Shown here: positions 40,117 through 45,611 of the stretch, piece after piece | Position numbering within the stretch: the first letter of the stretch is position 1 | Layout of the letters: every line of letters starts with the position of its first letter | The notes under the pieces: model-generated | The model's database searches: none | The model's input: only the letters and a program-made list of their open reading frames with translations | Told to the model about the DNA's origin: nothing | Made by a program: the position numbers and the translations under genes | Assembly (NCBI RefSeq): GCF_025526975.1 | Contig: NW_026515704.1 | Location: forward strand, 248,001 to 293,611 | DNA from: Fimicolochytrium jonesii | Lineage: Eukaryota | Length of the DNA stretch: 45,611 bases | Reading direction: 5' to 3'

Positions 40117-41574
40117 AGCTGCGAATTTGGACTGCGTCGACAGGGGATGAGCGCTTGAGAGATCGTCGTCCGTTGTGTGTGTGCGAGCGACGAGGGTTGA
40201 AATACGACGTCGGAAGTTCCCTCGTGACCGCGCGCGTTTTTTCCATTTCGTTCTTTTCGTTCTTTCCGCTCCATCGGCAGCGTACGTACTGGATATCAAC
40301 TTGCAACTTCACAACGGCCGCTCGTAAACCCGAACAGGCTCGGATAGGTATAAAGGATCCGATGCATGCGAACGGGGGAGTCGAGAGTCTTCAATAGGCT
40401 TCTTTGAAGAAACACCAGGAGATAATGTCCCACTTGTGGATCGACGCCGGACGCCGATTCATCCGGAAGCCACTCCCAAACGAGGTCCTACGACGACGGA
40501 CCTCGGAAACGGACTCTGGTTTTACGGATGCAGTATCATACACGGAAAGCCCGCGCAAGCTCGAAGTGGAGTATACGTGTCGCAATCACCGACGACTCGC
40601 TTCACGGCTGTCAGGTTGGCAGGAGACGCTTTCGTCTGGCACTCCACGCGCGCAATAACCCGGTGGTACGGGGTAATTGCACCTCCATCTACACCAACGC
40701 CGTACTTGCGAACTGGAAGAGGGAAAGGCCTGCCTTGTGGACTGAACCGAAGAACGGATGACCGGTCTCACGGTGTGCTGTCCGCGACCACTCACTTCGC
40801 AGATGTTTGGCAGGTACCAGTCGGGCGGTTTGAGAAAAGGGCTTGCGGAGGAAGCGGTTCGGCATTCCGGCTTCAACGCCTGGCTGATTGCCGAATTATG
40901 TTGATGCGAATATGCAGAAGAGGAACGTTGGAGACTGGGCAGGGGATGCAGGAGACACGTATTCCGGCATGGACCATGCATCCAGGCCGGACAAACAAAA
41001 GAGAGCGTTACACAACAGTAAGGCCCCTACGCCTTTCCAATCTCCAATCCGCCACATAGATTAGATTGCTCGCAAAACGGGGCCGAGGTCGCCAGGATTT
41101 CTCCAGATGGTTGGCGACAGTCATGGGCGGGGTTCCCCTTACCGATCCTATGGCAACATGTTTGCAAGCCCGCTGGAATGCCACAAGCACAGCGTTTAAG
41201 CATGTTCACACCGCTCCTCTCAGCCCTCTTGTTGAGTTCGCTGAAAGGAGCGATATGAATTATGAATACAATGAAGGAGTTGCACAGACAAAATCGCTCC
41301 TGATAGACGGACGACATGTGCCCGGGCGCTTCACATGCGTCCCCTCTGCGGGCTGTGAATCCCATTTCAGGCGTGTCACACGTTTTTGGGCATTCTTGCT
41401 AGCATAGGATTGTTCGGACGGTCTCATCTCTCTATTCCGTTCTCCGAACGCCGCGCAAGCAATTACGGGAACAAACTGATACGCCGTTTTCCGTTGTTCT
41501 GAGCTTCCGTTCGCGAATCGAGCTAAACTGCATCCCGCATGCCTGCCTCGCCCTGCCTCCCTACCCGCCATTCT

Positions 41575-41655
41575 ATGTTACAAGTTGCCATCATCGGCGA
41601 TGCCTCCGGCAGAGGTACAATGATGTGGATGGCAGATAACCACCACGGAAAATGG
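41575..41655 (-). ncRNA. Candidate Fanzor omegaRNA scaffold / element right end
   Basis: Lies directly 3' of the Fanzor stop. Nested stems GTTA/TAAC, TGCCATC/GATGGCA and CCTC/GAGG are visible, and the segment ends ...TTGTAACATA. Boundaries are inferred. Confidence 0.55.
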
Positions 41656-41675
41656 GATGGGGTGAAAACTCTAGA

Positions 41676-43729
41676 CTACCGGGAGAATGCATCTGGTCTG
41701 CGGCCATTGCCAAGCACCACCGAACGCACAATCGAGAGGAAATTCTTGGTACTTAGGACGTCCCGATTGTGCACTTTCATCCGTAGTCGTAGTGGTCGTC
41801 TTCCAGGAATCCCAAATGGCGTCCAGTCTTGGTTGATACATTCGGGGTTGGGGCAACCCACCAATCCATGGACGAACTCCTTTCTTCCCTTTCTAGCTTG
41901 CCACGGCCGAGGTGATAGCCATCGTCGGATGTTTTTCCTCACACGACCGTGGCAGTGGGGGCACACGGACGACGTTCGATACTCATCTAGCAAGTAGCAT
42001 GGAATGCTGTTTCTTGCAAAGAGTGTGCGGAATCTAATTTCCATGATGAGTTAGCATATTATAGTACATAAAAAACAATGATGGTCACTCACCCCTTGGT
42101 CTTCGATGACTCCTGAAAGCGCATCGTTTTCCCAGCATCGCTCCAATCACCCAAGATGACCGAAAAATGCTTTCCATACCGGCGTCGGATGTTCTTAATG
42201 AGCTTGCTCTCAGACTTTTGCCGCAGTGAGAACGCCTTGAATCTGCGAGCCACGTGAATCTCATCCCGGTAAAACTCATCCAGGGCGGGATCTGGGATAG
42301 GGATGTCAGCCCATGTATTACTAAATTTGAAAATCAAAATTGAAGTAGAACATTATACCCGCATGTACGTGATCCACAATGAACGCTGAGAACGCCTCGA
42401 TGTTCATGCTCTTGTGCGATGGAATATGTGATTCCATCTTGGCGATGCCGGCATTGATCTTTTGCTCTCTCATGTCGCTTTGAAAGAACCGAGATTTTGT
42501 CTCGACCGCCCGTTGATTGGATGTGTATCTGGTATGGTATGGGATGGTGCATTGTGAGGACACTGCAACGGAATGTCAAAAGCAGTAATGAACTAAAACG
42601 TACCGAAATGGCCGCTCCTTCTTGTTGTCTTGACAGAACAGGAGGTCACGCTTGCCCGGATCAATGCAGACGATGTTTGGAGCCTCCCTTAATTCGTCAA
42701 TGTGGTGCTCAAAATACAGCTGCTTGACTTCTTCCCGCATTTGGGCTTTGCTGCGCTTCCGGGCACGATACCCATACTTGAGCCCTGGCTTCTTGAAGTG
42801 GATGGTAACGGAATACCCGTTGGTGCCGATTGACCCATCAAATTTGAGACCCAGCTTCTTTCGATGTTTGAAGACCTTGTTCTGTAATCCGTCATTCAGC
42901 GACATAATCTGATTGAAATAAGCGCATAAGGATAAGGACTTACATTCATGTTGATAAACTGCCCCCACAGCTCCTGCTTGCGTTCATCAGTGAGTTTCCC
43001 CATGCGACGTCGGCCGACATCCAGGATATGAGTGCCTAGGATCAGCGTGTCGATCCGAACAGATGACTGGATTCGAGATTTGCGCAGCGGGATAGCGGAA
43101 AACAGCCGCATTCCACGGCGCTCATAAAGGTGTGAGAGCTCACAATAGGCACCTGTGATGAGGCAGGTGCAGACCAAGTTTAGACAAAAGAGGAATCCGC
43201 AGGGGGGGGGGGGGGGGGGTGGGGTTCGCTTCCTGTCGGTCAACATGCCGAGCATGCTGCTCCCCGGTCGCCTAGTGGGGACCGGCGCAAACTCCGCGCA
43301 AAGTCCCAGTGCTGCTGTATGCCCACCGCTGTATGCCCGCTGCTGCGCGATGTGGGTGTGTATGTTTGGCGCGCGGCGAACGCGTTGTCGGCGATGGCAA
43401 CAGCGCATCACAAACCACGTCGGCCGGGGTCCCAGCGCGCAGCCAATCAGCCAGGTCAGTGTACCAAGCGAGGCGCTTGCTCGCGTTGCTGCGCAGCCAC
43501 CGCACAAGCTGGGGGGGGGGGGTGGGGGGGGGTGTAGAATATACAGGATGCAACTCACCTAAAAATGGCATTGCATCCACCGCAAGGCTGTATGCAAGCG
43601 GCTCATCCTGGGGAGGAAACAGAGCCCATAACTCGTCGAGGACGGTCCGCTCAAGTCGTGTGAGGCGGCCAAACTCCTCTTCGGTTGGGTACTCTTCAAA
43701 TGTTGCGTACTTTGTGAATTGATGGACAC
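41676..43729 (-). CDS. Fanzor1 (eukaryotic TnpB-derived RNA-guided RuvC nuclease), 5' part interrupted by an LTR retrotransposon
   Basis: Exons 43729-43559, 43152-42944, 42881-42604, 42528-42359, 42291-42093 and 42033-41676 join in frame (~460 aa). Motifs: IPLR..VRIDT, FDGSIGTNGYSV, RuvC-I VCIDPGKRDLL, FRYTSNQR, ILGDWS, RuvC-II LLDEYRTSSVCPHC, VHGLVGCPNPEC, RuvC-III HNRDVLSTKNF and the terminal RPDAFSR*. Confidence 0.92.
43202..43532. repeat. Two G-tracts (G18-T-G4 and G12-T-G9) bracketing ~285 bp inside the first visible Fanzor intron
   Basis: Tracts at 43202-43224 and 43511-43532. The intron (43153-43558, 406 nt) is much longer than the other Fanzor introns (59-75 nt). Confidence 0.7.
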
Positions 43730-44259
43730 TGTTATGGACGACGCGTCCATACCATGCGCTTACCTCATGACAGCATCCCAACAGTCAGTCAATGTCAATT
43801 CCCTGTCAAAACCTGACATCTGCCAAACCTCGCAGCCGCACGCAGCCGCGCTACCCCACACCTGCCACTGCCTTCATTTCTCCACGCAGCCGCACGTAGC
43901 CACACCTCCCAACACTCGGCGCTTACAAACCCTTCTCCATACTTCCCCACGTACCCGCCCACAGCCTCAGCGTAGCCACCCCATCCCCAGTCTTCTGTTT
44001 CTATGCTTCCCCACCCTTGGCGCTTCTCTTGGCTTCCCTCTCATTCCGTACCCTTCTGCTTCCCCACGCTTCCCCAGCCTTCCCAGAAAAACATAAATAG
44101 CCGCCTCCCCTGAGCTCCCCACTTCCTGATCCCCCAGCAGATCAACACCAGTTCTTCCTAGTCTTGTTCTAGTTCTTGTTTTGGTCTGAATACCATTACC
44201 TGTCAACAACCTGCACCACAAGTCGCCTCTATTTCCATCGGCTCCGCCCATTCATAACA
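43730..44259 (+). repeat. 5' LTR of a Ty3/gypsy retrotransposon (530 bp)
   Basis: Starts TGTTATGGA and ends TTCATAACA (8/9 inverted termini, TG...CA). Contains a TATA-like ATAAATA at ~44093 and is followed at once by a PBS-like sequence and the gag ATG at 44311. The partner LTR is not in the window. Confidence 0.82.
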
Positions 44260-44310
44260 GTTTGATCTGCTCAACAACCCCCAGCCGCTGTACCTCCACG
44301 CCAAATCACC

Positions 44311-45383
44311 ATGTCCGACGCCCTTCCCCTCACGGCCGAAGCCTGGCAAGCCATGTGCAATGCGATTGACGAACTTCGAGCACAGAATACCACCCTACAA
44401 GCCGAACTAGCGCAAACCCAGACCACTGCCCCTGCCACCCACGCCCCGAACCCAAAATCAGTCTCCCAGACAAATTTGATGGCACCCGAAGCAAGTTCCG
44501 TGGGTTCCTCAACCAGATCCGGCTCATGTTCGCCCTCCAACCCAGGCGCTACCCCAACGATCAGACCAAGATACGAACTATTGGCACCTACCTCACTGGC
44601 ACCGCCCAGGCCTGGCTGGCGCCCCTTGTCGAACAAGACCATCATTCCCTTACGAACCTGGATGATTTCATCCAGCAAATGCAAGCAGTCTTTGGAGACA
44701 GCGACAGGATCCGCACATCCAAAAACAAGCTCCAGAACCTTCAACAAACCCGTGCAGCAACAGAGTATGTAGCTGAATTCCGACAGCTGCAATGCGATGT
44801 GTCGTGGAATGACCAGGCATTGATTGCCACCTTCCGTCGCGGCCTCAAAGAAGACGTCAAGGACTTAATGCTCACGATGCCCCCTACCGCCTCAATTGAC
44901 ACCGTGATGGAACAGGCCATCCAATGTGACAACCGATTGTTTGAGCGCCCTCTAGAGCGAAGCAGGAACCGACAGCCATATGTGCCAGTTACCACTAGCC
45001 CCACCCTCATGAGCCCCGACAACCGCCCAGACGACCCTATGATCATTGACGCTGCTCGTCCGGGAGGACCCCTCACACCGCTAGAGCGCCAACACCGCAT
45101 CACAAACAAACTTTGCCTCTACTATGGTAAACCCGGCCACATAGCCAAACTCTGCTCCCCGAACAAGATACGCACGGCGAATGTCGCGGTAAGGAACCTG
45201 CACCCATCCAGGATTTTGCCCAAGTCCAGCTGCAGTACAGGCCGAGCAGCTGGGCAACACCTGTCCTGGCCTTCTCACCACGCAAGTACTGCCAAGGGAG
45301 AAGCCACAAAACCGTGCTCCGATCCTGGCATCTCCAGCACACACCCTTCTCCTGACCACCAACAATGTCAATCTCCTATCTGA
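44311..45383 (+). pseudogene. gag: Retrotransposon gag, frameshifted
   Basis: The ATG 44311 frame switches near 44445 into EPKISLPDKFDGTRSKFRGFLNQIRLMF...YLTGTAQAW...LQQTRAATEYVAEF...WNDQALIATFRRGL. The zinc knuckle reads CLYYGKPGHIAKLC (second Cys replaced by Tyr). Confidence 0.85.
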
Positions 45384-45396
45384 GATACCCTCACCC

Positions 45397-45611
45397 ATGC
45401 GGACTTTGGGGCCCATCCTCACCATTCGAGTAACCCTGTTACCCTGCAGATATCGCCAGCGAGCTCCAGTTCAGCTTTCAGCACTACTCGACACCGGTGC
45501 GATGTCGTGCTTCATCGACGAAAGTTATGTCCGCAAGCACCGCATCCCACTTGTCAAGAAGGAGGACCCCATGCGCTTGTGAACTGGTTGACGGACGTCC
45601 AGCCATGCGGG
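45397..45611 (+). pseudogene. pol: Retrotransposon aspartic protease (start of pol), frameshifted and truncated by the window end
   Basis: LSALLDTGAMSCFIDESYVRKHRIP. After 45580 the typical continuation ELVDGRP is in another frame. Confidence 0.85.

Follow-up and report, generated by a model that had tools for sequence, protein, structure and literature searches.

A likely omegaRNA scaffold at the right end of a Fanzor transposon in the chytrid Fimicolochytrium jonesii

Introduction

TnpB nucleases of IS200/IS605 elements, for example that of ISDra2, are guided by an omegaRNA (also called reRNA) that derives from the element's right end and takes its guide from the flank, and they are RuvC nucleases that depend on a target-adjacent motif (TAM). 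The locus described here resembles this arrangement. It lies in a stretch of 45,611 nucleotides (nt) of Fimicolochytrium jonesii (assembly GCF_025526975.1, contig NW_026515704.1, positions 248,001 to 293,611 of the forward strand), which we call the window and to which all coordinates below refer. Downstream of a partial Fanzor1 gene on the minus strand, positions 41653-41579 are likely the gene for a 75-nt omegaRNA scaffold of the Fanzor nuclease and form the right terminus of a Fanzor transposon of the Spu-1-like kind.

The experimentally defined system with which we compare the locus is SpuFz1 of Spizellomyces punctatus. As described (Saito 2023, PMC10432273; PDB 8GKH), its omegaRNA has a 75-nt scaffold lying after the stop codon and before the 3' inverted repeat, followed by a variable extension of 14-15 nt. 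Within it, U5, C6 and C7 contact the protein, stem-loop 1 (SL1) and a linker (A29-C34) follow, stem 2 runs from U35 to A75 and the guide begins at U76 (PMC10432273). The RNA of TnpB has a pseudoknot and shares sequence with the 3' end of the open reading frame (ORF), whereas the SpuFz1-type RNA is described as lying after the stop and having no pseudoknot (PMC10432273). The Spu-1 elements carry inverted repeats of 30 nt, the left one preceded by CA, and their TAM is CATA (PMC10432273). Gene-less ghost elements in S. punctatus still yield working omegaRNAs (Saito 2023, Fig. 3e-f, PMC10432273), and among the 11 S. punctatus Fz loci with further genes Gypsy/Ty3 elements are reported within the Fz gene or to either side of it (Saito 2023, PMC10432273). 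In each of the three Fz1 complexes solved, SL1 consists of 7 base pairs, and what follows it seems to be unconstrained (Xu 2024, PMC11423790).

Right end of the element

The sequencing runs listed as containing parts of this DNA were three metagenomes from soil or straw (X1, X2 and X3; DNA runs), with small shares (0.06-0.08); no RNA run was listed. Six contig pieces fall on 41440-41760, none of them from X3, and four of the six reach the 3' flank (records 1, 2 and 3 of X1 and record 6 of X2). All four match the window at 95-100% as far as 41577 or 41579, beyond which come 22-77 letters unlike it, and none bridges 41579/41578; absent contig cover below 41577 was not counted as evidence. The loose ends at 41577 (X1) and 41579 (X2) are unlike each other and unlike the X1 consensus at 41579, and the two X1 contigs at 41579 also differ from each other, since their agreement with that consensus is only 0.62. 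The common sequence of the copies ends ...AACUUGUA, and the next bases vary (AC, AC, G and U). Because all four contigs break at 41577-41579 into different flanks, we place the end of the element at 41579/41578, with its TA at 41580-41579:

41578..41579, no strand assigned: right end of the mobile element (minus strand: ...CUUGUA / ACAUAG), from contig breakpoints

The original prediction for this locus had proposed an element end just downstream of the Fanzor stop and had expected copies to align to about 41575 and then to diverge abruptly. The breakpoints bear this out in four of four contigs, at 41577-41579. They also shift the boundary, drawn earlier at the TA at 41575-41574, by about 4 nt, and move the start of the guide to 41578, 4-6 nt before the start proposed earlier. 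No second copy of the element was found in the 45.6-kb window, and a scan of a prokaryote genome collection with a 24-nt right-end pattern gave 0 matches.

Scaffold and guide

Counting 75 nt back from 41579 gives a scaffold in which RNA nucleotide n is window position 41654-n. Since the contig breakpoints define its 3' end, that end was set independently of the comparison with SpuFz1. After the stop codon TAG the minus strand reads ...AUUUUCCGUGGUGGUUAUCUGCCAUCCACAUCAUUGUACCUCUGCCGGAGGCAUCGCCGAUGAUGGCAACUUGUAACAUAGAAUGGCGGG, the letters being those quoted in the original prediction, and we divide it as follows:

41654..41675, minus strand: spacer of 22 nt between the Fanzor stop and the scaffold
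41579..41653, minus strand: likely omegaRNA scaffold of 75 nt, with the length and frame of the SpuFz1 scaffold and a 3' end from contig breakpoints
41647..41650, minus strand: 5' UUCC motif, nt 4-7, the counterpart of SpuFz1 U5-C6-C7
41625..41646, minus strand: SL1, nt 8-29, from pairing and the Fz1 structures
41620..41624, minus strand: linker AUCAU, nt 30-34, with A30, U31 and C32 as in SpuFz1
41579..41619, minus strand: stem-2 region, nt 35-75, with two candidate folds
41608-41579, minus strand: predicted 30-nt right inverted repeat, within the stem-2 region
41564..41578, minus strand: predicted guide ACAUAGAAUGGCGGG, 15 nt, from flanking DNA, by analogy with SpuFz1 guides

SL1 consists of seven pairs (G8-C29, U9-A28, G10-C27, G11-C26, U12-A24, G13-C23 and G14-C22), with U25 bulged and the loop UUAUCUG; all seven positions are pairable in 0.1% of scaffold shuffles. 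The motif TTCCGNNNNGGTTRTC has a single exact match in the 45.6-kb window, at 41635-41650 on the minus strand.

The scaffold is near-invariant among copies, with 0-3 differences over 59-87 nt in records 1 and 2 of X1 and record 6 of X2 (span 41579-41637 or more), and the single recurrent difference listed within it is at 41607 (nt 47). Differences between copies are concentrated in the spacer at 41654-41675, where record 4 of X1 (on 41608-41707) shows two substitutions and seven inserted letters. Record 3 of X1 shares scaffold nt 37-75 and has other sequence upstream of 41617 (30 letters shown); perhaps it represents a variant of the ghost type whose 5' half is another one.

By analogy with SpuFz1, the guide likely starts at 41578 (ACAUAGAAUGG...) and is about 15 nt long, in keeping with the earlier proposal that it comes from the flank. 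The window holds no second match to the predicted guide at three or fewer mismatches.

The Fanzor1 gene upstream

41676..43765, minus strand: partial Fanzor1 gene, about the C-terminal two thirds, from RuvC motifs and matches to solved structures
43765-43559, 43152-42944, 42881-42604, 42528-42359, 42291-42093 and 42033-41676, minus strand: exons of the Fanzor gene, spliced model

The gene ends with the stop TAG at 41678-41676 (minus strand), its last frame running from 42050 to 41676. Its five introns are all GT..AG (406, 62, 75, 67 and 59 nt), and the spliced six-exon model gives 472 amino acids (aa) with no internal stop. Against aa 106-561 of an annotated 563-aa F. jonesii protein (P0002) the model shows 92% identity and no gaps. 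For the last exon, the match to SpuFz1 (PDB 8GKH) has E 1.7e-26 and that to PpFz1 (PDB 9CF0) has E 8.4e-11, and a 707-aa F. jonesii paralogue (P0003) matches 8GKH at E 2.7e-122. A search with this exon found 13 F. jonesii proteins, nine of which match over the full exon at 86-94% identity (up to 96% in the alignment). The RuvC motifs IDPGKRD, LLDEY and NRD and a zinc finger CPHC...CPNPEC are present. The catalytic residues E541 and D606 of SpuFz1 align with E in LLDEY and D in NRD, and IDPGKRD corresponds to SpuFz1 IDPNKRD (D383) with N385 changed to G. SpuFz1 W570 and W596, which contact the RNA 5' end and SL1, align with the W of RPWQ and of QDWT. Judged by sequence, this is a Fanzor1 gene with a close relationship to SpuFz1, and the earlier assignment of a Fanzor gene ending at 41676 stands.

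The copy is partial and falls short of a full-length protein with its WED and REC lobes. No Fanzor homology was found upstream of about 43765, and a tblastn search with P0003 (707 aa) covers only aa 267-705. Pfam gave a sub-threshold Cas12f1-like TNB match (E 0.01) as the only result on single Fanzor exons and no match for the Fanzor paralogues, though a precomputed PF26935 label appears in the search with the last exon. The retained part of the gene in the window has five introns, whereas a single ORF is described for SpuFz1; gain or loss of introns thus appears to have occurred between these two genera, which belong to one order.

Several smaller features of the gene were noted. Intron 1 (43153-43558, minus strand; 406 nt) has long C runs at both bounds. 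One X1 contig joins 43223 to 43508 within it and omits 284 nt, the joint being weak (22 letters on one side, homopolymer); this weakly suggests that the 284-nt stretch is an insertion private to the copy in the window. At 42291-42310, an X1 contig has four extra letters after 42300, which would bring GLTSI(P/H)IPDP in frame, as in P0003; the same stretch is spliced out in the window gene and in P0002. Because the stretch is in frame in P0003, and would be in the X1 contig, but is spliced out in the window gene and P0002, there are two Fanzor subfamilies, told apart by a segment of 11 aa that SpuFz1 lacks. At its C-terminus, the window protein ends ...DAFSR*, where most F. jonesii paralogues end ...DAFSRNR(R) (41670-41678), and a metagenome copy has seven extra letters around the Fanzor stop.

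Comparison with the SpuFz1 and PpFz1 guide RNAs

The likeness to the SpuFz1 RNA begins with position: the candidate lies on the strand of the gene, between the Fanzor1 stop and the right end, and its scaffold counts 75 nt. By hand comparison it has 5' UCC (UUCC at nt 4-7) and a 7-bp SL1 with a loop of the form UU(G/A)UC(G), A30, U31, C32, U35 and G36 are identical, and UA stands at the end of the element. Nucleotides 1-8 read AUUUUCCG, and the five listed S. punctatus RNAs have G/C-UUUUCCG or CUUAUCCG (Saito 2023, supplementary file 5, PMC10432273). Relative to the SpuFz1 RNA of the solved structure, 20/36 positions are identical by hand count in nt 1-36, the final UA is the same and the overall figure is 28/75. 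The earlier idea of a SpuFz1-type scaffold, some 75 nt long and placed between stop and element end, thus agrees with the published anatomy and with the RNA comparison.

The arms of SL1 differ. In SpuFz1 they are GARCYGG/CCGGUUC, with the loop UUGUCG or UUAUCG, whereas in the window they are changed at four of the seven pairs, one U is bulged and the loop has 7 nt. The omegaRNA of PpFz1 (Parasitella parasitica; PMC11423790; PDB 9CF0) is likewise described as having UUCC followed by a 7-bp SL1 with the loop UUAUCG and a variable region after SL1, but it has other SL1 arms, a shorter scaffold and a 4-bp stem 2, and its protein is far more distant and contains an inserted domain. Since the arms of the window, SpuFz1 and PpFz1 RNAs differ and yet all pair, the arms of SL1 change while the pairing stays.

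Further differences from SpuFz1 include another host genus, nt 37-73 unrelated in sequence with stem 2 likely rewired, and a gene with at least five introns, as against one described as a single ORF (PMC10432273). The window shows neither a left repeat nor the CA/TAM context of the Spu-1 elements.

Predicted folds

Ensemble pair probabilities are 0.36-0.82 for SL1, 0.39-0.71 for the CAUCAUUG/CGAUGAUG stem and 0.60-0.71 for the inner CCUC/GAGG hairpin, compared with 0.00-0.12 for UGCCAUC/GAUGGCA. Of two candidate folds for stem 2, the thermodynamically preferred one, here called B, combines CAUCAUUG (nt 29-36) with CGAUGAUG (nt 58-65) and CCUC/GAGG, at probabilities of 0.4-0.7. In this candidate fold, bases of the linker pair with nt 60-64.

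All four complementarities of the original prediction (UGCCAUC/GAUGGCA, GUUA/UAAC, CCUC/GAGG and CAUCAUUG/CGAUGAUG) are present in the sequence. The inner hairpin and the stem it had offered as an alternative get the higher pair probabilities, and the stems it had favoured are probably wrong. The listed pairings by themselves do not exceed chance level; what exceeds chance is the match to the SpuFz1 omegaRNA together with the break in conservation at 41579.

Interpretation and alternative explanations

Taken together, these observations make it likely that 41653-41579 on the minus strand encodes the scaffold of an omegaRNA. By analogy with the solved systems, an RNA of about 90 nt would be made from the minus strand, from 41653 to about 41564, extending some 15 nt into the flank as guide. 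Its 5' UCC and SL1 would dock on the RuvC and TNB (NUC) domains of Fanzor1, the guide would pair with DNA beside a TAM, and the nuclease would cut a match to ACAUAGAAUGGCGGG, the natural target being the same site without the element. Since the local gene is without its N-terminal third, the protein partner would come in trans from intact paralogues, as with the published ghost elements.

Several observations weigh against this interpretation. Folding is unremarkable: z is +0.54 for 41555-41675 (141/200 shuffles fold as well or better), +1.11 for 41500-41800 (both minus strand) and -0.60 for the 75-nt scaffold alone. The favoured stem 2 leaves a 10-nt 3' tail (nt 66-75) single-stranded, whereas the solved complexes close a helix beside the guide. 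A SpuFz1-like base of stem 2 (fold A: U35-A75, G36.U74, U37.G73 and A38-U72) is pairable, but at about +6 kcal/mol relative to the minimum-energy fold, and its two A-U and two G.U pairs are pairable by chance in 2% of shuffles. Nucleotides 37-73 are unlike SpuFz1 (6/37 identical by hand count), and the published SpuFz1 and PpFz1 RNAs were compared with it by eye and hand count rather than by program. No relevant Rfam match to the region appeared at E up to 10. On the protein side, several SpuFz1 residues that contact SL1 are changed in the window (K, V and H stand in place of R601, Y602 and W603, and A in place of R572). The 5' half of the scaffold is not common to all copies, as record 3 of X1 diverges upstream of 41617, and the boundary is backed by four short contigs only, which cannot show covariation. 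A left inverted repeat is missing from the window: there are no further matches at up to 3 mismatches per 18 nt, only chance matches of 8-10 nt, so that the window does not show the Spu-1 arrangement of a 30-nt inverted repeat at each end and CA ahead of the left one. The left end may lie beyond the retrotransposon described below, outside the window. Finally, the Fanzor gene is probably interrupted, and the locus may consequently be dead.

This last point leads to the alternative that survives best, although we regard it as rather unlikely: the stretch could descend from an omegaRNA gene that is no longer transcribed or used, the retrotransposon having cut off the gene and any upstream promoter. 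The coverage of only aa 267-705 of the 707-aa paralogue, the Ty3/Gypsy gag directly upstream and the lack of a left end in the window all fit such a relic. However, the scaffold remains near-identical to that of the other copies in three contigs and the retained exons are free of stops and frameshifts, so any decay of the locus would be recent, and in S. punctatus even gene-less ghost elements are reported to yield working omegaRNAs (PMC10432273).

It is tempting to speculate, doubtful as we hold this to be, that the guide RNA of this chytrid lineage has kept only the 5' docking module (UUCC and SL1) and has rebuilt the rest. Stem 2 would then leave its 10-nt tail free, or UGCCAUC/GAUGGCA would compete with SL1, and an orphan guide gene at a locus cut by a retrotransposon would be served in trans by intact paralogues.

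Very unlikely, in our view, is that the stretch is a transposon end and nothing else, that is, a terminal inverted repeat, subterminal DNA bound by a transposase and the 3' untranslated region of the gene, with no role as RNA. Conservation among copies would halt at the element end for any transposon, and the folds are not unusually stable, as this explanation would have it. Nonetheless, the best match to SpuFz1 and PpFz1 (UUCC and SL1) lies outside the 30-nt repeat and coincides with the part bound by protein in the solved structures, and the arms of SL1 change with pairing kept.

The fold put forward originally, a long-range UGCCAUC/GAUGGCA helix extended by GUUA/UAAC with a boundary at 41575/41574, hardly deserves consideration: despite a perfect 7-nt complement and a probability of 0.08-0.12 when the guide is included (nowhere above 0.12), it would destroy the conserved, homology-supported SL1, of which GUUAUC is the loop and UGCCAUC the 3' arm, it evaluates at -13.4 kcal/mol compared with -16.1 to -20.0 for folds that contain SL1, and GUUA/UAAC crosses the element end, requiring A76 and C77, which vary among copies.

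Significance

If the likely assignment as an omegaRNA scaffold is correct, the SpuFz1 guide-RNA family, which has been defined by experiment, gains a second genus of Spizellomycetales through this locus. Its natural variation agrees with the structural claim that constraint in Fz1 guide RNAs falls on SL1, the remainder being free to change. The candidate scaffold, together with the family of nuclease paralogues, might also represent a possible genome-editing variant, while the understanding of such systems would be unchanged. The Fanzor family and its mechanism have already been published, and this is likely another ordinary example of a known guide-RNA gene. A literature search, with the supplements of other Fanzor surveys outside its scope, found no published description of Fanzor or TnpB in Fimicolochytrium, and the genus does not occur in the eight of nine supplementary files of Saito 2023 that are searchable (PMC10432273).

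Related and neighbouring sequences

A scan of metagenome proteins gave 77 pattern matches at seven loci, of which one (L001, on a contig from a soil metagenome) is a true Fanzor, a Fanzor1 with 38-42% identity to the F. jonesii paralogues. Its UUCC begins 26 nt after the stop, the same +26 offset as in the window. Then comes a 6-7-bp hairpin whose loop is UUCACG(C), followed by a second, short hairpin and by UUGUA. Judged from these features, the scaffold of this distant relative is likely about 47 nt long and ends with UUGUA at 2856; it is a single copy, so this end is not fixed. A 16-nt inverted partner of the UUGUA end lies 121 nt downstream, at 2979-2994 (within 2785-2994), and is possibly where an adjacent element has its left end. 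The other six loci (L002-L007) were set aside, as they match over 25-26 residues only, and a loose motif match in L002-L004 was taken as chance, being upstream of their matches.

Upstream of the Fanzor gene lies another mobile element:

43776..45611, plus strand: Ty3/Gypsy retrotransposon with a putative long terminal repeat, gag and a protease-like start, from Pfam, continuing past the window edge

Its gag runs from the ATG at 44312 to 45383 (plus strand) and matches the Pfam families Retrotrans_gag (E 1.7e-16) and Ty3_capsid (E 5.3e-13); a weak Asp_protease_2 match (E 0.0062) covers 45193-45582 on the same strand. Fanzor homology ends at 43745-43765 and the retrotransposon adjoins at about 43775, so that it probably interrupts the Fanzor gene; that the gene was interrupted rather than deleted is what we infer, since the window ends at 45611. 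A Ty3/Gypsy element in or beside the Fanzor locus is a further likeness to some of the S. punctatus Fz loci described (PMC10432273). The remaining genes of the window are ordinary fungal ones and encode a PI3/PI4 kinase, a chitin synthase, MoeA, Per1 and a ClpB-like protein.

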